From the NCBI RefSeq assembly GCF_004010195.1, contig NC_057719.1, forward strand, positions 17,240,893-17,304,892: a stretch of 64,000 bases of DNA, given 5' to 3'. Below are positions 6,496 through 61,095 of the stretch, piece after piece; position 1 is the first letter of the stretch, and each line of letters starts with the position of its first letter. A model generated the notes under the pieces. That model searched no databases and was not told where the DNA came from. It worked only from the letters and a program-made list of their open reading frames with translations. The stretch comes from Chiloscyllium plagiosum. Lineage: Eukaryota. The position numbers were made by a program, and so were the translations under genes.

Positions 6496-7025
6496 CAAAT
6501 CCAAAAGAGGAAGGAAGAATTAAATTACTGTGACTTTTTATTTTAATGCCCCTGTGACTCCAAGCCCAATTGCACAAAAATTTGCAAATCTTCTTTGTAC
6601 CCAAAAAAAATTGCATTAACCAGGCCCATTAAAAACCACGGCCAAAAGTATACATTTTCTTTTCATTCATCCACTATCTTGTGATCCGAAACTTACCCTA
6701 CAGCAAGTAAGAGGTAATTTAGGACTCAGCACAAAACCCGCGCTTGCAGGCAGAAACTGGAAGTTGCAGCGCATTAATCTACTTCATTTAGTGTCTCAGA
6801 GGGATTTTAGATTCATATCAAAAATCTGTCGTCCATTGAAAGAAAAGTCTTTATAGTACATTGCTGTTGAGCATTTATTTATTTATTGTGCTGAAACCAC
6901 TAGCTGAGTTTTAAAGAAGAACAAACAGTAAAAAAAATGGCTTATACAGCAGCTTCTAAAATGGCCGACTATTTGCCTATAAATTGCAAAATCATTAAAA
7001 TGGAGTTAGACTGTCTATAAGAACA

Positions 7026-7178
7026 GGCAGCATCCGAGGAGCAGGAGGGTTGACATTTCAGGCATAAACCCTTCAATGTCGACTCTCCTGCTCTTCGGAC
7101 GCTGTCTGACCTGCTGTGCTTTTCCAGCACCTCACGTCTGGACTCTGATCTCCAGCATCTGCAGTTCTCACTTTCTCC
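7026..7178 (+). mobile_element. PLE micro-insertion (inverted pLTR hairpin) with 15-bp TSD
   Basis: ctgtctataagaaca duplicated at 7011-7025 and 7179-7193; internal inverted repeat ggcagcatccgaggagcaggag / ctcctgctcttcggacgctgtc. Confidence 0.85.
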
Positions 7179-7499
7179 CTGTCTATAAGAACACATCAGA
7201 GACAGTCACCTTTGTGAAATGTGAAAGACCCCATCCTTTTATGTCATTCACAAAACATTCAAACACCACCACATTTAGCTGGGGGTGGAGTAAGCCATTC
7301 GATGTAAATCACTTTGGGTAATGAAACTTCACTGAGAATGGAAATCGTGCAGCCATAATTTTATCATGTATAAACCATGGACCTGGAATCAACTTTGGTA
7401 TGACCACATTTGCACAATTGACCAGCTGATGAGAAGAGATTACAGGATAAGTAGACTGAACCTATTTTGTAAAATAGGAGCAAAATACCCCCAAATTTA

Positions 7500-7822
7500 G
7501 TGGCCCAGTGGTTAGCACTGCTACCTCACAGTACCAGGGTCCCAGGTTCGATTCCAGCCTCAGTGTAGAGTTTGCACATTCTCCCCATGTCTGCATGGGT
7601 TTCCTCTGGGTGCTCCGGTTTCCTCCCACGGTCGGCATGGACGGGTTGGACCGAAGGGTCTGTTTCCATGCTGTACATCTCTATGACTCTATGTGCAAGT
7701 CAGGTGAATTGGCCATGCTAAATTGCCCAGTGTTAGGTGCATTAGTCAGAGGGGAAAAGGGTCTGGGTGGGTTACTCTTCGGAGGGTCGGTGTGGACTGT
7801 TGGGGAATCTAATCTAATCTAA
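7500..7822 (+). mobile_element. HE1 V-SINE with internal HER1-tail insertion
   Basis: tRNA-like A/B boxes (cagtggttagcactgc, ggttcgattcc), V-domain gagtttgcacattctcccc...ccggtttcctccc, AATCT tail. Confidence 0.85.
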
Positions 7823-7875
7823 TCTATCATTATCCCAGCTGCCTTCCCCCAGGCCCACTCCTCCTCCCATTTTGT

Positions 7876-8192
7876 GGGCAGCACAGTGGTTAGCACTGCT
7901 GCCTCTCAGCGCCAGAGACCCGGGTTCAATTCCCGCCTCAGGCGACTGACTGTGTGGAGTTTGCACATTCTCCCCGTGTCTGTGTGGGTTTCCTCCGGGT
8001 GCTCCGGTTTCCTCCCACAGTCCAAAGATGTGCAGGTCAGGTGAATTGGCCATGCTTAATTGCCCGTAGTGTTAGGTAAGGGGTAAATGTAGGGGTATGG
8101 GTGGGTTGCGCTTCGGCTGGACGGTGTGGACTTGTTGGGCCGAAGGGCCTGTTTCCACACTGTAAATAATCTAATCTAATCTAATCTAATCT
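7876..8192 (+). mobile_element. HE1 V-SINE, near full length
   Basis: gggcagcacagtggttagcactgctgcctc...ggttcaattccc, V-domain, LINE-derived tail gggccgaagggcctgtttccacactgt and (AATCT)5. Confidence 0.92.
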
Positions 8193-14095: not shown

Positions 14096-14399
14096 AAACA
14101 TTTCTGTAAACATGGTGAAGCCAATATTTGGAGATGGGATAAGTCAGTAAGAAGTGGGGAGGATATCTGTTCACCCTGTGATACAAAGGGGACTGGTGTT
14201 CATTTTTTTTGTGGAGGGCCAGTGCAAACCATGCCTCCTATATTTAGTTCGCTGATCAACAGCAGAGCAAAGTCAGTGGAGGACACTGTTGCTTAAAGAC
14301 ACGCTGCTGCTCTATAAAGGTGAAGAGTCTTTTACCACGGACAAAAATTATTTTCTGGAGCAGAGAGCAGCCTGTCTTCAGTTGGCATGTCCAGATAGT

Positions 14400-14597
14400 T
14401 AAAAATTGCACAACACCAGGTTATAGTCCAACAGGTTTATTTGGAAGCACAAGCTTTTGGAGCGTTGCTCCTTCATCAGGCGGTGAAGGAGCAGCGCTCC
14501 AAAAGCGAATGCTTTCAAGTAAACCTGTTGGACTATAACCTGGTGTTGTGTGATTTTTAACTTTGTATACCCCAGTCCAACACTGGCATCTCTAAGT
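14400..14597 (+). mobile_element. PLE micro-insertion (second family), ~80-bp-arm hairpin with 14-bp TSD
   Basis: catgtccagatagt at 14386-14399 and 14598-14611; arms acaacaccaggttatagtccaacaggttt / aaacctgttggactataacctggtgttgt. Confidence 0.85.
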
Positions 14598-15566
14598 CAT
14601 GTCCAGATAGTGTGATGCTAATGGAACAAGAAGGGGTCCTCCTCCCCACTAATGGACAACAGGTACCCAGGACAGATATTCAGCAGTAATGAAGAAAGAT
14701 GGTTGAAGCAAATAGTGCTGTAGACCTCACAGAAGCTGCCTGCAGTGCAAAACAAAAGCTCATAACTAAGTTGAGACTTCCAAACATATATCTGCACCAT
14801 CCTACTTTAGCACCAACAAACTTTCCTATCCCACTTAGTATTCTCCTCAGAATGGACCACTTCACTCACACATTTCACTATGGGTTTGACAGAATCTTCT
14901 TTCCTGGTAAAGAACAGTTCGAAGTGTTTATTTAATTCCTCAGCTATGTATAATGCTTCCATACGTATATCCTTTCTTTAGTTCCTTGTCAATCCTAACT
15001 TCCTTTTAGTACCTCTTTCCTTTGTATTTAACTGTAGAAGACTTTGTACTCTGACCTCCATGAACTCCCAGTCTCTTCTCAGGTTCCTTCTTTGCTTCTA
15101 TTATTCATTCTTTTGCCTTCCCTCTACACTCTCTGTGTTAAAGCTTGTTTACGTTATCAACTTAATATCTGTGCAATCTTTTCCTGCTCCAAATTACTTT
15201 TTGCTCTTTCTTCACCCAGTCAGGCATCCCTGGCTTTCTTTGCCAGGCAATGTATTTCAGCTGTATATGAGCCACCATCTCTTTAAAGCAGCCCATTGTG
15301 TTGTTGGAATATTCTGCCCTATGTACTGATATGGCATTCACTTAAAGCATCAACGCTATTTGGGCATCTTCTCCAGTTGTCTGTTGTGTTGCTCGTCATT
15401 TGCTACTGGATTGCAGAATAGTCAGTCCTCTTTTGTTTATTTAGTTTTGTCAAATATCCGAGGCCTTTTGAAGCTGTGAATGAAAACTCTCTTGAATGTT
15501 TGCTCCCCCTTTTTCATCAACACTGTGGAAATCAACACCTTGTGTGGTGCACTGGGTGAGTTTAGA

Positions 15567-21557: not shown

Positions 21558-21979
21558 CTAGTCACCATGGTCTGGATCACATAATTCTGTGTTTTGAAGG
21601 ACAAAGTAATGTAGTATCAGAAGTAGGTCATTCACTCTCTCAAACCTGCCATCTGGATAATGACTGATCATTTACTCCAATGACACATAACCCCGATATC
21701 CATCGTCTCAGTTTGCCTGTTATGATTTGGCAAATACCCAAAAACTTGATCTCTTGTCCCGTGCAAAATGCCACTTCCATTGACGCTCGGATCCTCCACA
21801 CTAAAGCATACTAAGTAATCTGGGAGGATTGTGTGCTGATAAACTCATTACATATGAATATCTTCCTTTGTCCTAATCATTTCAAATGTCAGACAAAAAA
21901 ATACACTGGTAAAGGTAAAATTTCAGGCTACAAAAATGCACTAGAGCTACCTAGAAGCACAAAAAGATTAATCTCTTCA

Positions 21980-22159
21980 GGGAGGAGAAAGTGAGGACTG
22001 CAGATGCTGGAGATCAGAGTCGAGAGTGTGGTGCTCGGAAAGCACAGCCAGTCAGGCAGCATCCGAGAAGCAGCAGAATCGACGTTCCATCCTCATCCCT
22101 GCTCCTGCTCCTCAGATCAGTCTGACTGGCTGTGCTTTTCTAGCACCACACTCTCGACG
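21980..22159 (-). mobile_element. PLE micro-insertion (hairpin) with 12-bp TSD
   Basis: ttaatctcttca at 21968-21979 and 22160-22171; arms gtcgagagtgtggtgct..aaagcacagccagtcag / ctgactggctgtgctttt..agcaccacactctcgac. Confidence 0.85.
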
Positions 22160-24759
22160 TTAATCTCTTCATTGACGCAGAACGAAAATTAGGTACTGTG
22201 GACTCACTGATTTCTGATCAGATATTCTGGCTCCCCACCTTGTGTAGTCCTTCAATGATTTCAAGTCCGAGAGATCTCCAGCCTGCCACTTAGTCAATCA
22301 AAGTTGGCCTTTCACAGCTCCCTGGTGACCAAGACTATCATCTAAAAGCTGCTCTATTGCTCTGTCCCTAGAAGCCATCAGCTATACTTTGGTCAAACTC
22401 ACAAGGAACAGATTAGGTAAGCAGTGGTAGGCAGTCTGAGCAGTTTTGGCTGTTGAGCATTTATTTCCATTGATTGAGTGAGTGAGTGAGGTGTTAGTCA
22501 AATTTGTGCTTTTTAAAAGCAGCTCTCCATTTGGGAGGTGATCCTGTTTGGCCGTTACTTACCATTGGCATGTGGTTGCAACTTAAAGAGAAGGTTCCAA
22601 AAACATTAAATGGAATGGCAGATATCAGTGGCAGGTGAATGTAATGTGTATAATACCAGTCTGGGTTGAGAATGTATTAGCAACTGTACTCAGCAGTTTA
22701 GAGACCATGACAATGGTTCACTCCAATTGACTCGTGCCTTTAGACATTATGCTGTTGGCAGTTTTCCGAGTGTGAAGATTTGAGTGTAGATTTTCCTTTA
22801 GAGGTCATTGGGTTGAGCACAGAGAAGAATGACAATGCCAGGGGCAATTGCATAGGAGAGAAGCAATGGCTGGTGACAGGGCAGGTCCTTGATAGTGAAA
22901 TGTGCCATCTTCCCAGCTTGCCTTCTACCCAGGCCATGCTCTGCAGCAGGCACTGAAGAAAAATAAAATTACGCGCGTCCTACAATTTTTGACCAGGTGG
23001 AGAAAGACATTGAAAAAGCACAGTATGCAACAACCAGCTGTTGCATGTCAAGTTAAAATAAAGCCATGCACGCACTTTGCAAAATCCATACGTGGATTTG
23101 TTGTCTGACAGATCAGACAAATTAGTACCCACCTCTCAGATGACATCTCCTCTGCACTGTGAGGGACATGCAGTTTCACCCGGGTTACTGGAGGCAGTAA
23201 CTTGTAGCTCATCTTTCTTTCACAAGTGGTATCATCATTTCTGATTCTGCTCCTTTACATTGGCAACATGTCTACTTCGTTGTAACTGAAAACATTGTGC
23301 AAGGGTTACAGACAGTGAAGAGGATGAAGAAAAAAAGTTCACAAAAATGATACAAAACAGATATTATAAATATCAGGAAAGAATGCAGGTCTTTTCTCCA
23401 AAAAAGCAGCACAATAGTGCTCTTGAAAATGATGAGGGGTTTGAGAAGGAAAATACAGAAACAAATGTTAGGAATAGTTTCAAGAGAGGACCAACAAGTC
23501 TGGTCCAATGCATTCATGGCTGAAGTTCTGTGTCAGCTCCACTCTCCTGCCCACTTCTTATATCCCATGATTCCAAGAAATCACAAGTTTGTTTCAGCCT
23601 TAAATATACCTGATGGCGGAGCATTCACAACCTTCTGATGTGCCCACTTATGGGGAGGGAAACCAAAATTGGGCACCATCACTATGAGGTTGCCAATAAA
23701 AAGCCTAATAAGGAATTCAGGCAAAAGTTTTATCCAGAACATGGTATGAATGTAGAATTTGCTACCATGTGGAGTAGTTAAAGTGAAGAACATAGATTCA
23801 TGGGAGGAAAAGGCTGAGTATAAGAGGTAGACAGGAAGAGAAAGGTATACTGATAAAGTGGCATATGAAGAAACTTACCTGTTGCAAAAATACTAGTGTG
23901 GATGAGTTGAACTGAATAGTCCATTTCCTCAAATTGTACGTAATTCTGTGCAATCTGGCATTTTTATGAACCTGTAGCAGCTGAGGTAAATTCAGCTGAG
24001 TTTTCCAAATTTAGCACTCTTGCTGGACTCTGCACTTAATGTTCATAAATTCATGCATTGACACGGATGCATACATGCACCGGACATATAGGAACAAATT
24101 GATGTCCTTTTGACCATGTGCTGCATCCCAACCACCAATTTCAACTTCTTCTGCCTTCTTCGTATCAGTATGTTCCCACCTGCAGTGCAATACTGAAGGA
24201 TTTGAAAAACATAGCACATTTCTTCTATTGGTGATTGAGATATTTTAATCTGCTTCGTTCTCAGTTTGAGTCTCACACATGCACACGCACAAGTTTAACT
24301 CTTAACAACGAAGTGATGATTTAATTGAGCTTTTGAAAGGCATAGCCAGTGAGCAAGTGGAGAAGGTGAGAATAAGGGGATATTAAAACTGTGAGTGAGT
24401 TGCTCAGAGCTGATATCAGGAAGCAATTCTTTCCTGAAAGGCGAGTAGAAATCCGAAATCCCCTTGCCTTCTAGAAGGCTCAGTGAATTTAAAGCGGAGT
24501 TTATGTTAGGCAATGGCATTAGGGTTACGGACTAATATTGGGGGGGGGGGGGGGAGGAGGTGCAAGATGCAGATAAACAATGATCATGCCTGATAACTGA
24601 ATGGCCTACTCCTATTCCTAGATCCCAAAATTCAGACTTTGCAACGAGGATGACAAGTGGTTTTTGGCTACAGTTTAAAAGAACAATCAGATCTTAAAAC
24701 ATTATCGAGATGTACAAATTTCCAACCAGATCGCCAATAGGAAGAGTTGAGTGGAAGAA

Positions 24760-27181: not shown

Positions 27182-27930
27182 GACACACACACCCACAAAC
27201 ACACACACACCCCACTCACACACACACCCACACACATCCCACTTACTCACNNNNNNNNNNNNNNNNNNNNNNNNNNNNNNNNNNNNNNNNNNNNNNNNNN
27301 NNNNNNNNNNNNNNNNNNNNNNNNNNNNNNNNNNNNNNNNNNNNNNNNNNNNNNNNNNNNNNNNNNNNNNNNNNNNNNNNNNNNNNNNNNNNNNNNNNNN
27401 NNNNNNNNNNNNNNNNNNNNNNNNNNNNNNNNNNNNNNNNNNNNNNNNNNNNNNNNNNNNNNNNNNNNNNNNNNNNNNNNNNNNNNNNNNNNNNNNNNNN
27501 NNNNNNNNNNNNNNNNNNNNNNNNNNNNNNNNNNNNNNNNNNNNNNNNNNNNNNNNNNNNNNNNNNNNNNNNNNNNNNNNNNNNNNNNNNNNNNNNNNNN
27601 NNNNNNNNNNNNNNNNNNNNNNNNNNNNNNNNNNNNNNNNNNNNNNNNNNNNNNNNNNNNNNNNNNNNNNNNNNNNNNNNNNNNNNNNNNNNNNNNNNNN
27701 NNNNNNNNNNNNNNNNNNNNNNNNNNNNNNNNNNNNAACACCCTCATACACACACTGCACACACACATGCGTACACACACATATACACTCTCCCCCCACA
27801 CACATACACACACAATCCACCCCCACACCCACATCCCACACATACACCCCATCCACCTATACACACACCACACACACATACACACCACATACACTTAGAT
27901 ACATGCACAAACACATGTGCGCACACCACA
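27182..27930. repeat. (CA)n-rich simple repeat containing assembly gap 27251-27736
   Basis: Imperfect CA/CAC runs on both sides of the N run. Confidence 0.95.
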
Positions 27931-28237: not shown

Positions 28238-29770
28238 AGAATCATGGAGTTATATAGTATGGAAATAGATCTTTTGGTCCAAATAATTCATGCCGACCAT
28301 GTTCCCAAACCAAGCCTGTCCTGCTTGCCTGCATTTGGCCCATATCCCTCCCAAACTTTCCTATTCATAAACTTATGCAAGTTTTTTATAAATGGTGTAA
28401 CTGTACCTGCATCCACACTTCCTCTGGCAGTTCAGTCCACACATGAATCATTCTTTGTGTAAAAAAATTGACCCTCACATCCCTTTTAAACCTTTCTCCT
28501 CTCACCTTAAAAATATGCACCCTAGTTTTGAACTCCCCCACCCTAGGGAAAAAGACTTTGTTACTTAGTTTATCTATGCCTCTTAATGATTTTATAAAAC
28601 TCTATGTGGTCACCCCTCAACCCCATATTCCAGTGAAAAACCTCCCAGCCTATCCAGCCTGTCTTTCTAACTCAAACCTTCCATTCCCAGCAACATCCTG
28701 GTATTGTAAATCTTTTCTGAATCGTCTCCAATTTAATAATATCCTTCCTATAGCAGGTGACCAGAACTGTACACAGTACTCTAAAGAAGCCTGACCAACA
28801 TCCTGTACAACTACTACATGATGTCCCAAATACTATACTCAAAGGTCTGAGCAATGAAGGCAAGCGTGCTAAATGCCTCTTTAACCCTGTCTACGCGTGA
28901 TTCAAAATTCAAAGGATTACGTACCTGAACCCCGAGGTCTCTCTGTTCTACAACATTACCCATGACCCTATCACTAATTGTACAAGTCCTCCCGTTACTT
29001 GTCTTATCAAAATGCAACAGACAATCAAGGTATTTTTCAATGTATAATTTCACTTACATCACACTGTAAATTTTTGTTATAAACTCTGTGCCTTACAATT
29101 GTGTACTCCACCTCCACCTGATGAAGGAGCGGCACCCCGAAAGCTAGTGCTTCCAATTAAACCTGTTGGACTAGAACCTGGTGTTGTGTGATTTTTAACA
29201 AAATGCAATATATCACATTTTTTCAAATTAAACTCCATCTGCCACCCTTCAGCTCATTGACCCAATTGATCAAGATCTCTTTGTAATCTTAGATAACTTT
29301 CTTCACTGTTGTCCATAAATTTACTAACCATGCCTCTTATATTGACATCCATATCAATTATAGAAATAACAAACAAAAGTGGACCCAGTACCGATCCTTG
29401 TGGAATATCGCTGGTCGGAGACCCCCAGTCTGAAAAACAACCCTCCACCGCTACCCTCGGTCTCCTACCTTCAAACCATTTTTGTATCAAATTTCTCCCT
29501 TGAAACTCATGTGATCTAACTTTACCAATTAGTCTACCATATGGAATCTTGCAAAAGGCTTTACTAAAGTGCAGTGTAAACAATCTCTATCATTCTGCCC
29601 TCATCAATCGTTTTGGTTACTTCCTCAAAAAATTCAATCGAGTTTGTGAAGCATAATTTCCCTCACATGAAGCCACGCTGACTGTCCTTAATCAGTCCTT
29701 GCCTCTCCAAATCCATGTAAATCCTAACTTTCAGAATGACCTCCAACAACTTACCCACCACCGATGTTGC
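28238..29770 (-). mobile_element. HER1/CR1 LINE RT fragment with nested PLE
   Basis: Minus ORFs: FSKAFCKIPYGRL, PQGSVLGPLLFVI, LQRDLDQLGQ, EQRDLGVQV, ETIQKRFT. Confidence 0.9.
29018..29198 (+). mobile_element. PLE 3' fragment (second family) with hammerhead and 10-bp TSD
   Basis: caaaatgcaa at 29008-29017 and 29199-29208; CAC-CTGATGA-A-GGAGCGGCACCCC-GAAA-GC-TA-GTG at 29115-29149. Confidence 0.85.
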
Positions 29771-35562: not shown

Positions 35563-35760
35563 GTTAAAAATCACACAACACCAGGTTAAAGTCCAACAGG
35601 TTTATTTGGAAGCACTAGCTTTCAAAGTGCTGCTCCTTCAGTAGGTGGTTGTGAGGCATTGTCAAATGGAGTCTAGATTAGAGTGTTGCTGGAAAAGCAC
35701 AGCAGTTCAGGCAACATCCGAGGAGCAGTAAAATTGACGTTTTGGGCAAAAGCCCTTCAG
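35563..35760 (-). mobile_element. Two adjacent PLE fragments from different families; the second has a 16-bp TSD
   Basis: 35563-35650 gttaaaaatcacacaacacc family; 35667-35760 Neptune type flanked by gtgaggcattgtcaaa at 35651-35666 and 35761-35776. Confidence 0.8.
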
Positions 35761-37049
35761 GTGAGGCATTGTCAAAGGTTACTGAGAAAGGTAGCGATCA
35801 GAACGTTGTGTACGACTTTGATTAGAGTCACTTCAGTGCTGTGACATGGATGAAAGCTAATGTTTCACATATGGGTTGCAGGAAAATTTGCCTTTTCTGA
35901 GGCACAAAAGACTTTGGAAGGGAAAGGGCAATATTAACACGCTGATGAAGGTGAGCATGGAATGGGGGTTCCGAAGGTATCTCAGCTTGGTTCGGCAATG
36001 AGTAATTGCTTCTCTGGTTGTCACTGGCATTTTGTAGTAATTTTCTGTGTTTTGGCTATTTCTTGTGATTCGATTCCAAATTCCATTGAAACTTGACACT
36101 GCCATAATTGCAAATGATAGCAGGCACATACAGAAAAGTGGATGTCTGGGAGTGATTACAGGACAGTAATCTGAGCAAGGGGTTCAACTGACAGCACAAA
36201 CTAGAAGACTGAAACTCAAGTCGCTTAGAACTGTCACCTGAACCCCAAGCTTACATTACGCTGCTGGATATTGCTGATATCTGTCACATTTTAATCATAA
36301 AAAAACCTGTCTTCATTTTTTTTCTGGCGATTTTATTCTGTTTGTGAGCTGACTCTGACTGTCAGAACTGCCCTTGTCCTTGATGCATGACAACATTCAC
36401 AGAGGAGGATTAATAATTGTGTGATCATCACTGTAAGAAATAATCTGCAGTTGATTACCTGGAAGTTCAACGTCCTGCACATATTAGAGATAGAATAACT
36501 GTCATAACTCTTCCAACACCTCTCTTACTTGCCTGGACAAGATACAAGAGAAAGCTTGTCATCCGATAGGTGATGCATCTCTCACCTCCAGCTTTCAACT
36601 TCCATCTCTTAACTAAAACCTTCCCTGTCCCGATTTTATGAATATCATCCTGCCATGAATACTCTTCTGAAACTTCCTGTCAGTGTTCATCCTGAACTAT
36701 GAGCTTCCTGTCTTCTGTGTGTTCCCTCCTCCCTGAAAAATTACTGCTTCAAAAATCACGCAAAACATATATTCTTTCACACAACCTCGGAACCTCATTT
36801 TTCACTTCTTTTCCTACCAGCTTTAAACACAAGCACTTCCCTTGTTTCATTTAATCTTATTTTCTAACCTTGACAACTTTCAGTTTTAAATCTCACTCGG
36901 TTTTTGAAAAAAAAGATGTTGCTGGGCAGTTTTGGAGTAACCATTTGACCAAGTCTAGCAACCAGGAATCGGAGTGAAACTGGACGCAATGAAAAATGGG
37001 CAAGTGGAAGCAGTGTGGGGTGTGGAGGATCTCCCTGTTATTTGGAGAC

Positions 37050-43294: not shown

Positions 43295-44155
43295 TAGAGA
43301 TATTCAGCATGGAAACAGATGCTTTGGACCGACTGGAGCATGCCGACCAGATATCTTAAATTAATCTAGTCCCATTTGCCAGCATTTGGCCCATGTTCCT
43401 CTAAACCCTTCCTATTCATATACCCATCCAGTTGCCTTTTAAATATTGTAGTTGTACCAGCCTCCATCATTTCCTCTGGCACTTCATTCCATAAACACAC
43501 CACCCTCTGCATGAAAAAATTGCCCCTTAGGTCCATTTTAAATGTTTCCTCATATACCCACCCAGTTGCCTTTTAAATATTGTAGTTGTACCAGCCTCCA
43601 CCATTTCCTCTGGCACTTCATTCCATAAACACACCACCCTCTGCATGAAAAAATTGCCCCTTAGGTCACACCACCCTCTGCATGAAAAAATTGCCCCTTA
43701 GGTCCATTTTAAATGTTTCCCTCTCATTTTAAACCCATGCCCTCTAATTTTGGATTTCCTTATTCTGGGGATAAGACCTTGACTATTTACCCTATCCATG
43801 CCCCTCATGATTTTGTAAACTTCTATAAGGTCACCCCTCAACCTTCGATGCTCCAGGGAAAATAACCCCAGCTTATTCGGCGTCTACTCATAGCTCAAAC
43901 CCGCCAATCCTGACAACATCCTTGGAAATCTTTTCTGAACCTTTTCAAGTTTAAAGACATCTTCCCTATATCAGGGAAACCAGAACTGAACACAGTACTT
44001 CAAAAGTGGCACAACCAATGTCCTGTACAGCCGATACATGACATCCCAACCCCAATACTCAATGCATTGACCAATAAAGGCAAGTCTACCAAACACTTTC
44101 TTTATTACTCTTTCTACTTGTAAGCCATTTCAAGGAACTATGAAACTGGACGCCC
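43295..44155 (-). mobile_element. HER1 LINE 3' fragment inserted in a Deu-SINE (43135-43292 and 44160-44275), with internal duplications
   Basis: HER1 tail cagcatggaaacagatgc..catgccgaccagatatc; Deu core gtgcaatgttgagggag..gatgccctctttctgatgagac upstream. Confidence 0.85.
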
Positions 44156-44563
44156 TTCCAAACTGTTATTCCTCAACCTACAGCTAAATAAGGATTAGCT
44201 GGTTTTTTATCACATTTCCAGTTATGCAATTTGACCACAGCATTTCCTATATTACAATCTGACTGCACACTAGACTACACCAAGTGCAGAATACTCTTCA
44301 CAAAATAGTTTTACCTCAAATTTTATGCTTCATCTGAAACACTTTGATCTCAAAATATTTGCAACTCATTACTTCTATCAATGTTTCCCAGATTTTACAG
44401 GTTTCAAAAATGTAAACTTGAAACTGCCTTACTAACTTTTCAGAATTTATCTCAGTTATCCCTCAATCAAGACAATACAGGCAATTTGGTTGCCTATCTC
44501 ATTGATGCTTGTGTCATATCTCTGTGTGTACAATGGCTGTTGTGATTCCTATAATACAATGCA

Positions 44564-44747
44564 GTTGAAACTTTATTGCTGGAACAGCACAGCAGGTCAG
44601 GCAGCATCCAGGGAACAGGAGATTCGACGTTTCGGGCACAGGCCCTTCTTCAGGAATCAAATGTTCCCTGGATGCTGCCTGACCTGCTGTGCTGTTCCAG
44701 CAATAAAGTTTCAACTTTGATCTCCAGCATCTGCAGACCTCACTTTC
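44564..44747. mobile_element. PLE micro-insertion: perfect 54-bp inverted repeat with 17-bp TSD, inside a Deu-SINE tail
   Basis: Arms 44564-44617 and 44662-44715 are exact reverse complements; tcctataatacaatgca at 44547-44563 and 44748-44764. Confidence 0.93.
44621..44658 (-). ncRNA. Minimal type I hammerhead ribozyme with intact core
   Basis: GATTC-CTGAAGA-A-GGGC(CTGT)GCCC-GAAA-CG-TC/GAATC: 5-bp stem I, 4-bp stem II, palindromic ACGT stem III, GUC cleavage triplet. Confidence 0.85.
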
Positions 44748-44914
44748 TCCTATAATACAATGCAACCACACATCAAAAGGACTGCATTTGCTGTGAATCC
44801 AGTTGGGATATGCTGAGATTGTGCAAGTTGCTACATAAATGGCACATCTATTTATTCAATTGCTCAATAGTAAGGAATTCAAAGATAACACCAAAAGTTT
44901 CATTTCCACTTATT

Positions 44915-45240
44915 AGGATGAGGGGCATGGATAAGGTGAATAGCCAAGGTATTTTTCCCAGGATGGGGGAGTCTAAAACTAGAGGCTATAGGTTAGAGAG
45001 GAGAGGGGAAAGACTCAGAAAGGACCTTCGGGACAATGTTTACACACAGAGGGTGGTGCATGTGTGAGCTGGGAGAGGAGGTGATGGAGGCTAGTACAAT
45101 TACAACATTTAAAGGCATCTGAATGGGTACATGAATAGAAAGGGGTCAGATGCTAGCAAATGGGACTAGATTAGTTTAGGGTATCTGATAGGCATGGATG
45201 AGTTGGGTTTATTTCTGTGCTTTGTAACTCTATGACTCAA
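44915..45240 (+). mobile_element. HER1 LINE 3' end
   Basis: MRGMDKVNSQGIFPRMGESKTRG..YTQRVV; ctctatgactc tail. Confidence 0.85.
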
Positions 45241-45382: not shown

Positions 45383-46915
45383 GAGTGGTGATGGCCCAGT
45401 GGTATTATCACGAGACTCGGATAATATTCTGGGGAAAGTGAGAACGGCAGATGCTGGCGATCAGAGTTGAGAGTGTAATGCTGGAAAAGCACAGCAGGTC
45501 AGGCAGCATCCAAGGAGCAGGAGAATCAAAGTTTTGAGCAAAAGCCCTTCATCAGGAATGAGGCTTGAGAGCCGAGGACTGGAGAGGTAAACTAGAGAGG
45601 GGTGGGGCTAGGGGAAAGTGAGCTGAGAGTGCGATAGGTAAATGAAGGTGGGGGTAATGGTGATAGAGGAAGATGGAGCGGATCGGTGGGAAGGAAGATG
45701 GACAGGTAGGATGGGTCATAAGTGTGGTACTGAATTGGAAGGTTGGATCTGGGATAAGATGAGGGGAGGAGAAATAAGGAAACTGGTGAAATCCACATTG
45801 ATCCGAGGTGGAAAATGAGACGTCCTTCCTCCAGGCATCGGGTGGTTAGGGTGTGACAGTGGAGGAGGCCAAGGAACTGCATGTCCACACCTCCTATTAA
45901 CCNNNNNNNNNNNNNNNNNNNNNNNNNNNNAGGAGTTGCAAAACCTGTGCCCATATCCCCCCCCCCCCCCCACCTCTGTCCAAGACCCCAAAGGAAGCTT
46001 CCACATATATTAGTTTTACCTGCACTTCCACACATGTCATTTACTGTATCCGTTGCTCCCGATGTGGTCTCCTCTACATTGAGGAGACAGGACACCTGCT
46101 TGCAGAGTGCTTCAGAGAACATCTCCGGGGCACCTGCACCAACCAACCCCACTGCCCCAGGGCGGAACATTTCAACTCCCCCTCCCACTCTGCCAAGAAC
46201 ATGCAGGTCTTGGGCCATCTCCATTGATAAACCTTAACCATCCTACGACTGGAGGAAGAACACCTGATCATCCACTTTGGGACCCTCCAACCACACAGGA
46301 TCAATGTGGATTTCACCAGTTTCCTCCTCCCACCTTATCCCAGATCCAAGCTTTCAACTCTGCACTGCCCTCATGACCTGTCCTACCTGTCCCTCTTCCT
46401 TCCCACCTATNNNNNNNNNNNNNNNNNNNNNNNNNNNNNNNNNNNNNNNNNNNNNNNNNNNNNNNNNNNNNNNCATTTATCTCTCCAGCACCCCGGCTCA
46501 CAAGCCTCATTCCTGATGAAGGGCTTTTGCCCGAAACATCGATTCTTCTGCTCCTCAGATGCTGCCTGACCTGCTGTGCTTTTCCAGCACCACACTCTCA
46601 AGTCTAATATTCTGGGGAGCCAGGTTCAAACCCCCACTGTGCCAGATGGTGGAATTTGAAATCAATGAAACGTAAAAATCTGGAATAAAGGGTTAACTGC
46701 TGACCATGATAATGTTGCCAGTTGTTGGAGGGAAATCCCTATTTGATTCATTCATTTCCTTTAGGATGGAAATAGCTGTCCTTACCTGCTCTGCCTGACA
46801 TGAGACTCCAGAACACATAGCCATGTGGTTGACTCTCCGCTGCCCTTTGTCAATTAGTGATGGGAAATGAATGTTGGCCTAGCCAGGGATACCCACAACA
46901 CCATGAATGAACTTT
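45383..46915 (+). mobile_element. tRNA-derived SINE split by a PLE insertion
   Basis: Head gatggcccagtggtattatcac (45390), resumes ggttcaaacccccac..gatggtggaatttgaa (46623), tail gggaaatgaatgttggcctagccag..catgaatgaa. Confidence 0.7.
45435..46604 (+). mobile_element. Penelope-like element (Neptune type): GIY-YIG C-terminus plus pLTR, with inverted pLTR copy upstream; 14-bp TSD
   Basis: + frame from ~46016 FTCTSTHVIYCIRCSRCGLLYIEETGHLLAECFREHLR; 45435-45900 is the reverse complement of 46170-46600; taatattctgggga at 45422-45435 and 46605-46618; gaps 45903-45930 and 46411-46473. Confidence 0.9.
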
Positions 46916-48519: not shown

Positions 48520-48952
48520 CACAGCACGGTGGCTCAGTGGTTAGCACTGCTGCCTCACAGCGCCAGGGACCTGGGTTCAATCAAGATTAGAGTGGTGCTG
48601 GAAAAGCACAGCAGGTCAGGCAGCATCCAAGGGAGCAGGAAAATAGACATTTCAGGCAAACCAGGGTTCAATTCCCGCCTTGGGTAACTGTGTGGAGTTT
48701 GCATATTCTCCCCGTGTCTGCGTGGATTTCCTCCAAGTGCGCTGGTTTCCTCCCACAATCCAAAGATGTGCACGTCAGGTGAATTAGCCATGCTAAATTG
48801 CCCAGGGGTGTTCAGGATTTGTAGGTTAAGTGCATTAATCAGGGGTAAAGGTAGAGTAATGGGGAATAGGTTTGGGTAGGATATTCTTTGGGGAATTGGT
48901 GTGGACTTGTTGGGCTGAAGGGCCTGTTTCCACACTGTAGGGATTCTATACT
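48520..48952 (+). mobile_element. HE1 V-SINE with PLE fragment (48582-48660) inserted at the B-box
   Basis: cc(t/a)gggttcaat duplicated at 48570-48581 and 48661-48672 around caagattagagtggtgctggaaaagcac.. Confidence 0.88.
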
Positions 48953-54885: not shown

Positions 54886-55335
54886 ACATAAACAGACTAT
54901 TCAGATTGCTTTCCAAAAGAGAGCAGCACATCAGAATGGATTCATGAGGAGTAATTGAAACATTTACACAGAATAAGTATTTAAAGGAAAGAATAGGTGT
55001 AGATAGACGTGATTAGTGAGAAAATTGAATGGCGAAGGTACTATAATTCTTCAGTGTTGGTTCTCAATAACATCAAGTGAAATATATCATGGAGGACACA
55101 CTTATCATATACTGACAGCACTGAAAACACTTTGGTCTTAGGATTATATTTTAATAAGAATGTGATCTATTCATCTAATAAGATGCAAAAACTCATCCAA
55201 ATATTTGGAACATTTCAATAGTTTAAAAGAGAATTTTCACCTTTCATCCTGACACAGTCTGCAAGATACATCAATGTTGCCAATTTGCATCCATCTCCTC
55301 ACTTTTGATGATGTTGATCACTTCCTTAAGTGCAA

Positions 55336-55542
55336 AGTCACATGACACCAGGTTATAGTCCAACGGGTTTATATGAAATCATTTCAGAGCGTAGCTCCTT
55401 CTTCAGGTGAAGAACTTTACCTGACAAAACAGCAGCGCTCCAAAGGCTGGTGATTTCCAATAAACCTGTTGGACTATAACCTGGTGTCATGTGACTTCTG
55501 ACTTTGTCCACCCCAGTCCAACACCAGCACCTCCACATCATG
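55336..55542 (+). mobile_element. PLE hairpin micro-insertion (second family)
   Basis: aagtcacatgacaccaggttatagtccaac / gttggactataacctggtgtcatgtgactt inverted arms with decayed hammerhead halves between them. Confidence 0.8.
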
Positions 55543-59479: not shown

Positions 59480-60655
59480 TGAATATAGGTTTGCTCACTG
59501 AGCTGCAAGGTTTGTTTTCAGACGTTTCATCATCATACTCGATAACATCATCAGTGAGCCTCCGGTGAAGCCCTTTCTATTTATGTTTTTAGATTTCCTT
59601 GGTATGGTGATGTCATTTCCTGTGTTGATGATGACATTTCCTGTATTGGTGACATCATTTCTTGTTCTTTTTCTCAGAAGGTGGTAGAAGGGGTCCAAAT
59701 TGATGTGTTTGCTGAGAGAGTTCCGGTTGGAATGCCATGCTTCTAGGAACTCTTGTACGTGTCTCTGTTCGAGAATGGATGTGTTGTCCCAGTCAAAGTG
59801 GTGTCCTTCCTCATCTGTAAGGATAATAGTGAGAGTGGGTCATGTCCTTTTGTGGCTAGTTGATGTTCATGTATCTGGTGGCTGGTTTTCTGCCTGTTTG
59901 TCCAATGTAGTGTTTGTTCCAGTTCTTGCAAGGTATTTTGTAACTATGTTTATTTTGCTTGTTGTCTGTCTGGGATCTTTTAAGTTCATTAGCTGCTGTT
60001 TTAGTGTAGATTTGTGGGCTACCATGATGCCAAGGGGTCTGAGTAGTCTGGCAGTCACTTCTGAGATGTTTTTGATGTAGGGGAGAGTGGCTAGGGTTTC
60101 TAGGCACGTTTTGTCTGCTTGTTTGGGTTTGTTGCTGAGAAATCGGCAAACTGTATTCATTGGGTACCCATTCTTTTTGAAGACTCTATGTAGGTGATTT
60201 TCCTCTGCTCTTCGTAGTTCCTCTGTGCTGCAGTGTACGGTGGCTCATTGAAATAATGTTCTAATGCAGCTTGGTTTGTGGGGGTTGTTGGGATGATTGC
60301 TTCTATAGTTCAGTATTTGGTCCGTATGTGTTGTTTTCCTGTAGAGGCTGGTTAGAAGTTCCCGATTGATTTCTCGCTCTACTGTGACAACAAGAAATGG
60401 CAGTTTGTTGTTATTTTCCTCCTCTTTTGTGAATTTTATGTCAGTAAGGATATTATTGACCGTCTTGATGGTTTCCTCTAATTTGTTTCGTTAAATGATG
60501 ACAAAGAAGTCATCCACGTAGCAGATCCAAAGTTTGGGTTGGATGGTTGACAGAGTTGTTTGTCAAGTCTCTGCATTAATACCTCTACTAAGAACCCTGT
60601 TATCGGAGATCCCATAGGTGTTCTGTTGGTTTGTCTGTAGGTTTTGTTACTGAAA
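59480..60655 (-). mobile_element. Penelope-like element (Poseidon type), 5'-truncated: RT C-terminus, GIY-YIG and pLTR
   Basis: FSNKTYRQTNRTPMGSP, PKLWICYVDDFFVII, TLPYIKNISEVTARLLRPLGI, YKIPCKNWNKHYIGQTGRK; frameshifted. Confidence 0.92.
59518..59557 (-). ncRNA. Minimal hammerhead ribozyme in the PLE 3' pLTR
   Basis: TCA-CTGATGA-T-GTTATC(GAGTAT)GATGAT-GAAA-CG-TC/TGA; stem II closing pair is G-U. Confidence 0.7.
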
Positions 60656-60947
60656 TTGACTGGATTCATTAACATGTTGGATTCATATGTGGTCAGGCCA
60701 GTTGGGATGTGCAGATTCCCTTTACAAGTTACACACAACAGATATGAAATTTGTGCTGTTATTGTGATAAGGACTGATGCTAAGCACATTACCTTTGCTG
60801 TCAATGCAACATGCAAAGGTGTCTGACTATAAACAGACACTCCAGCTTGCCACCCAGCAGCTGGTATGACTTTCACTTTACCTGAAATTTTTGTTGTTTC
60901 CAGTAATAACATAATCCTACTGTACATTAGTTTTATGCTAGGATCCA

Positions 60948-61095
60948 GGGAAACAGAGAATAGGAATAGATGGCTTTTTCTTGGGTTGGCAGGCTGTTAC
61001 TGGTGGGGTACCACAAGGATCAGTTCTTGATTCCTAGCTATTTAAAATCCATATAAATGATTTTGATGTGAGGACCAAATGTAAGGTTGCCAAGT
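60948..61095 (+). mobile_element. CR1 RT fragment
   Basis: KQRIGIDGFFLGWQAVTGGVPQGSVL..FKIHINDFD. Confidence 0.75.

Follow-up and report, generated by a model that had tools for sequence, protein, structure and literature searches.

Anatomy of the insert

The window, by which we mean the whole stretch of 64,000 nucleotides that was analysed, carries at 44547-44764 a short fold-back insert with a hammerhead ribozyme motif in its loop (Table 1). The two 17-bp direct repeats that bound it are identical and cannot be extended, the insert between these TSD copies measures 184 bp, and its two arms are complementary at 54 of 54 positions around a loop of 44 nt. Repeats, insert length and arms are as an earlier sequence-only reading had described them. 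That reading also took the insert to consist of arms and loop alone, which is wrong. It missed 32 unpaired nucleotides at one end, which are the tail of the repeat family from which the insert derives and its most diagnostic feature. The fold-back is beyond chance (folding z = -16.1), and 20 mononucleotide shuffles of the window gave no direct repeats of at least 17 bp and no inverted repeats of at least 25 bp.

Table 1. Features of the insert and of an older fold-back of the same family, in window coordinates
Feature	Position	Strand	Remarks
Left TSD, 17 bp	44547..44563	.	Matches the right copy; single copy at the organism B empty site
Inverted piece of element end	44564..44657	-	From the upstream edge of the hammerhead (-32 from the cut) to the short 3' end (+62); aligned onto the longer window copy
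Left 54-bp arm	44564..44617	-	54/54 complementary to 44662-44715
Minimal type I hammerhead motif	44621..44658	-	Predicted cut between 44626 and 44625
Head-to-head junction	44658..44661	.	Four letters between inverted and direct piece; register with stem I is exact
Direct piece of element end	44662..44747	+	5'-truncated at +8; runs to the long 3' end
Right 54-bp arm	44662..44715	+	
Unpaired tail, 32 nt	44716..44747	+	At one end only
Right TSD, 17 bp	44748..44764	.	First letters also fit the element 3' end
Older 1.2-kb fold-back	45422..46618	.	14-bp TSD, tail at the left end

In family coordinates, which were mapped on a longer copy in the window and count from the hammerhead cut, the inverted piece spans -32 to +62 and is joined to a direct piece spanning +8 to +96. 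The last of these figures counts letters shared with the right TSD, an overlap that is microhomology at the priming site. Three of the letters at the junction differ from the family sequence and fit neither piece, leaving a 3x3 internal loop. A subfamily-specific stretch by the tail, present at 44565-44580 and 44700-44715, carries AATAAA on the sense strand of the element, and the older window copies are without it. A DNA-transposon (MITE) origin is ruled out by this anatomy, since the arms do not both lie at termini and their source is the end of a retroelement.

An empty site in a related species

We compared 4 of 24 sequencing runs with 44150-44950. In run X13, from the related species organism B, one contig of 676 nt runs straight from 44153-44546 into 44748-44947. 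This empty site retains one TSD copy; across 594 bases it shows 17 substitutions and 2 gaps relative to the window, the flanks being 2.9% diverged. The insertion is therefore real and lineage-recent. The earlier reading had argued for recency from the lack of arm mismatches, and here it holds only in part: 0 mismatches in 71 pairs bounds the pairwise divergence to less than about 4.1% (95% bound), and the age of the insertion is better dated by the empty site. In run X2, from another sample of organism A, a contig extends from the left flank to 44585, which is 22 nt into the insert and below our 31-letter bridging bar; it suggests that the insert is present in that sample. Among the contigs listed for run X5, also from organism A, none lies between 44486 and 44828.

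The subfamily appears to be abundant in organism A. Depth at the subfamily-specific position 44573, a summed value that gives no copy number, reaches 306,691 in X2, where the flanks stand at 18.9, and 291,352 in X5, where they stand at about 7. Both exceed the flank by four orders of magnitude, whereas organism B shows 743 over a flank of 10.1, less than 100-fold. This contrast points to a lineage-specific expansion in organism A.

The runs also contain 157 joints linking left arm to right arm. The 15 that were inspected are spread over many positions, and several have additional letters separating the arms. Some fold-back junctions other than that of the insert have depths of 240-333 against flanks of 10-19; at 10-25 times single-copy depth, they indicate that junctions can recur. 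In RNA run X21, a poly(A) single-cell library of which about 2% was read, no reads fell on the unique flanks, and family reads occurred on both strands, a sampling too thin to weigh on the question of a host transcript. Metagenome matches to a 19-nt pattern from the arm were taken as chance, as 25 of 25 loci matched over only 19-25 nt.

The repeat family and its link to GIY-YIG elements

The family has 13 loci in the window, obtained by grouping 18 alignment rows according to position. Seventeen pieces reach the element end, a count that omits one row stopping at an assembly gap. Of these, 7 end at +93 to +96 (one being the reference itself), 5 end at +62 to +68, and 5 end elsewhere. The resulting two classes of 3' end are comparable to the two RT starts described for an anole element in excerpts of PMC11167929. 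Of 15 pieces (three rows of the long copy omitted), 14 have their 5' start at positions from -35 to +8, which places it within or at the hammerhead.

TSD-bounded fold-backs make up four of the 13 loci; their TSDs measure 17, 15, 12 and 14 bp, their junctions all differ, and a short end is paired with a long end in 3 of the 4. The exact junction of our insert has no second copy in the window. In the three older fold-backs, at 7011-7193, 21968-22171 and 45422-46618, the arms differ by 11-16% over short alignments and the TSDs are perfect. If the arms began identical, the joint chance of this combination is about 0.002, which hints at two template RNAs, although the TSD search favours perfect matches, making the hint a lead only. 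Linear copies at 35651-35778 (TSD 17-18) and 48569-48672 (TSD 12-13) both end at the short 3' end, and the second sits inside another repeat that we take to be SINE-like. Runs of N amount to 577 letters in all (about 27240-27740, 45903-45930 and 46411-46473), two of them inside the long fold-back copy.

The direct piece of the 1.2-kb fold-back carries a broken GIY-YIG region (45931-46410), which has C, C, H and H and a CxxC just upstream, and is followed by the family end; RT itself is absent from this copy. Four matches were found among 7 candidate relatives. They comprise two uncharacterised proteins of Chiloscyllium punctatum, P0001 (65% identity) and P0002 (61%), together with two that are unnamed. 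P0001 and P0002 carry both RT-like and GIY-YIG regions, with P0001 scoring below the curated Pfam cut-offs (21.7 versus 22.6 bits for GIY-YIG and 16.4 versus 29.6 for RVT_1). Pfam returned 0 families for the window's own two GIY-YIG fragments. Because the family end is joined to a GIY-YIG region whose relatives combine RT and GIY-YIG, the family is an endonuclease-positive (EN+) Penelope-like element (PLE) in a shark-like genome, and the 1.2-kb fold-back connects it to an autonomous PLE. The CxxC just upstream of GIY-YIG is also found in P0001-P0003. Such a CxxC linker is given as a motif of Neptune elements, common to Nematis as well, in the excerpted text of PMC8557442, and on the strength of this motif the family probably belongs to the Neptune clade.

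The hammerhead motif and its predicted activity

The loop had been described as containing a complete minimal type I hammerhead on the minus strand. All core letters are indeed present, but the description passed over an extra A, and the fifth pair of stem I was probably made by the junction. Read on the minus strand, 44658-44654 pairs with 44625-44621 to give a 5-bp stem I; CUGAAGA (44653-44647) is followed by the extra A at 44646, between positions 9 and 10.1; 44645-44642 pairs with 44637-44634 in a 4-bp stem II; and GAAA (44633-44630) is followed by CGUC. Family reads and contigs diverge from the reference beyond 44657, with a different letter at the fifth stem I position, and both window copies that extend upstream have another base there. 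The conserved core, the extra base 9.1, the G10.1-C11.1 pair and a palindromic stem III are all found. Rfam gave 0 matches at gathering score in the whole window. Within 44500-44800, at E up to 10, it gave 9 matches, all below gathering score and none to a hammerhead (miRNA-type hairpin, snoRNA or lncRNA models); we rejected the weak miRNA-type ones as generic hairpin scores.

Across the family, variants within 44621-44658 fall at core position 7, in loop II and at one position of stem I, and none falls at an invariant core letter or in stem II, among the 40 of 54 variant rows considered. This pattern argues that the intact motif was inherited from the source family, and its intactness is no sign of selection on the insert copy.

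The same earlier reading proposed that the ribozyme could cut minus-strand host transcripts. In favour of activity in a host read-through transcript, the core letters are all intact and stems I and II are predicted to form with a probability of at least 0.978. However, stem III would require a zero-length loop in the monomer and could be closed only in a dimer, and the insert holds one hammerhead core, with none on the plus strand. The modelled active dimer, at -18.9 kcal/mol, gains nothing over two monomers, at -20.0, or over an alternative dimer, at -24.1, in nearest-neighbour energies that ignore tertiary contacts. In the excerpts of PMC4209133, the activity of a single minimal PLE hammerhead was undetectable and that of dimers weak; in those of PMC11167929, cleavage needed the protein of the element. 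At the site itself no host gene was identified, and Pfam found 0 families in the 7 long frames of the window. Given that stem III cannot form in the monomer, that there is no partner copy and that published minimal PLE hammerheads are inactive alone, cutting of a host transcript is very unlikely. On these models and comparisons, the hammerhead of this copy most likely does nothing. It is the normal pLTR motif of the family, passively copied cargo.

A model for the insertion

Our preferred explanation, to which we give a probability of roughly 0.88, is that the insert is a dead-on-arrival, 5'-truncated insertion of an endonuclease-positive PLE. An inverted, truncated PLE integration product was one of two origins that the sequence-only reading had offered, and it is supported by the tail, the GIY-YIG link, the three further window fold-backs with different junctions and TSDs, and the 157 joints. 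As excerpted here, PMC8557442 describes PLE insertions as often consisting of an inverted 5'-truncated copy at the 5' end plus a 30-40-bp tail at one end; the Pen2a_Av insertion has a 31-bp tail (PMC3846280, excerpt); and an anole PLE cuts and extends both target strands in vitro, using two RT start sites whose spacing equals the tail (PMC11167929, excerpt). The features expected of an EN+ PLE insertion are found in our insert or its family: the GIY-YIG link of the family, an inverted 5'-truncated copy, a tail, a TSD with an empty site, and a pLTR hammerhead. By every tested feature, the insert is a PLE insertion and a new copy of a known integration product. Several findings count against this reading: the three junction letters fitting neither piece require non-templated addition or error, Pfam gave nothing for the window's own GIY-YIG fragments and only sub-threshold scores for the relatives, and some other fold-back junctions can recur.

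The model would run as follows. The GIY-YIG endonuclease would cut the two target strands 17 nt apart, a spacing that the TSD itself shows. Each nicked strand would then prime RT on the element RNA, at the short internal start in one case and some 32 nt 3' of it in the other, as the anatomy and the behaviour of the anole element in vitro suggest. If the top-strand nick primes at the short start and the bottom-strand nick at the long start, two opposed cDNAs would result, with a tail at one end. Neither would extend beyond about 100 nt; both would end inside or beside the hammerhead and then be joined head to head, probably aided by the complementarity of stem I. The exact register of the junction with stem I, together with the three letters that fit neither piece, suggests stem I annealing and the addition of non-templated bases, although the annealing step is a post hoc reading of one junction. 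The order of priming and joining was inferred rather than observed. Because the insert was laid down as two head-to-head pieces, in a way already described for PLEs, the ribozyme is ordinary cargo and does not mark a new element.

Alternative origins

A different source for the direct piece, which we consider unlikely, is RNA already cut by the hammerhead. The piece, taken in register, would then start exactly at the cut, and the junction would record cleavage in vivo. The plus strand from 44654 does align to the family without gaps, with 93 of 96 positions identical, from the base that immediately follows the cut, and 6 of 15 short window pieces start within 8 nt of the cut. However, the five letters at its start are also complementary to the 5' strand of stem I, and the register, noticed post hoc, may reflect annealing or chance. 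Copying from cut RNA would also place three adjacent mismatches within an otherwise perfect copy. Another 6 of the 15 pieces start at -24 to -35 instead, and the alignment ends of decayed copies are imprecise. RNA starts and ends in X21 show no pile-up, a poly(A) single-cell library being weak for such a test, and the part of PMC11167929 drawn on here reports that cleavage was unnecessary for insertion and that no reads were found at the cut.

It is about as improbable that a single cDNA snapped back and primed itself, or that the palindrome is an assembly artefact. The identical arms and the stem I register of the junction would fit a snap-back, and self-priming has been proposed for palindromic PLE junctions (PMC3846280, excerpt). 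However, the direct piece has 32 nt that are missing from the inverted piece. Since the inverted piece is without the tail, pure snap-back of the first cDNA cannot supply it, and a template jump would also be needed. An artefact would not produce a TSD that matches an empty site, and the X2 contig already runs from the flank into the insert, below the bridging bar though it is.

Less likely again is a reading in which a hairpin-hammerhead unit, or a few fixed junction types, would have been copied as a unit by PLE protein within a very large, species-specific burst, with a junction guided by stem I and hammerhead-cut RNA as one template.

We regard as very improbable the idea that the fold-back is a small non-autonomous element that would re-insert as a fixed unit once its hairpin RNA had been transcribed and PLE protein had bound it. 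The insert is clean, young and TSD-bounded, its subfamily has expanded strongly in organism A by the summed depth at 44573, and some other junctions rise far above their flanks. However, no two of the four family fold-backs in the window share a junction, and the joints in the runs are heterogeneous. There is no tandem array, and an integration by-product explains the whole pattern; recurrent junctions can also arise at microhomology hot spots. Propagation of a fixed fold-back unit, if it occurred, would mean a ribozyme-bearing element with a new architecture, unlike that of tandem retrozymes. The second origin offered by the sequence-only reading, a self-propagating retrozyme-like unit, is not supported in the window, where there are no tandem units and no second copy of the junction. 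We rejected assignment to the non-LTR retrozymes. The excerpted definition (bioRxiv 10.64898/2026.07.22.740005) specifies units repeated in tandem, head to tail, at least 2 consecutive ones carrying a hammerhead, whereas the insert has one core, a head-to-head layout and no tandem units.

Comparison with known systems

The PLE integration product finds its closest parallels in published EN+ PLE complex insertions, as given in the figure 2 legend of PMC8557442 and for Pen2a_Av in an excerpt of PMC3846280. Common to both are head-to-head pieces, a tail at one end, a TSD and a GIY-YIG family. In contrast to these, our insert has no ORF between its pieces, the whole unit being 184 bp, and its TSD is 17 bp rather than the 8-10 bp of the rotifer EN+ PLE examples excerpted. 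With PAc, a Poseidon element of the green anole (PMC11167929, excerpt), the family would share two RT starts that define the tail and the extension of both target strands, and it shares a hammerhead near the start sites, although with its CxxC linker it is probably Neptune-type and not Poseidon.

The motif itself resembles the minimal type I hammerheads of metazoan PLE pLTRs, as excerpted from PMC4209133, in its short stem I, the extra base between 9 and 10.1, the G10.1-C11.1 pair, the palindromic 15.2-16.2, the missing loop 3 and the occurrence mostly as dispersed single copies. It differs in a stem II of 4 bp, against 7-8 bp in the Schistosoma families, and in a stem I that is clamped by a 54-bp helix. 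Non-LTR retrozymes, in the bioRxiv excerpt, are likewise short and non-coding, with a type I hammerhead and an origin in PLE pLTRs, but they consist of tandem units arranged head to tail, every one with its own hammerhead. Among titles and abstract openings we found no paper on shark PLE hammerhead families; supplements, outside that scope, could list shark motifs.

The insert is a genuine and young insertion, well preserved and of an ordinary kind. It illustrates a known PLE product cleanly, and it can be used as a presence/absence marker between two related species. How PLEs generate inverted-plus-tail insertions is described as unresolved in the excerpted part of PMC8557442. A very abundant young subfamily whose junctions are intact would permit a statistical test of two-template priming, of stem I-guided joining and of whether hammerhead-cut RNA ever serves as a template.

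Other repeats in the window

A second hammerhead-bearing family is represented by a near-perfect fold-back at 14386-14611, which has a TSD of 14 bp and, at one end, a tail of about 34 nt, and by a fold-back at 55335-55540 with a decayed hammerhead in its loop and a tail, for which no perfect TSD of at least 8 bp was found. These two fold-backs share the architecture of 44547-44764, and we count them in favour of PLE integration. A linear copy of the same second family lies near 29110-29200.

Decayed frames at 59530-61000 resemble what we take to be a PLE reverse transcriptase of another, Poseidon-like type; Pfam gave 0 matches for these frames, and P0001 and P0002 did not match them. A third hammerhead-like motif follows the frames at 59554, on the minus strand. 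Local tandem duplications occur at 7506-8190 (370-390 bp) and at 43428-43720 (period about 134 bp), the latter in sequence that is presumably the end of a CR1-type LINE.
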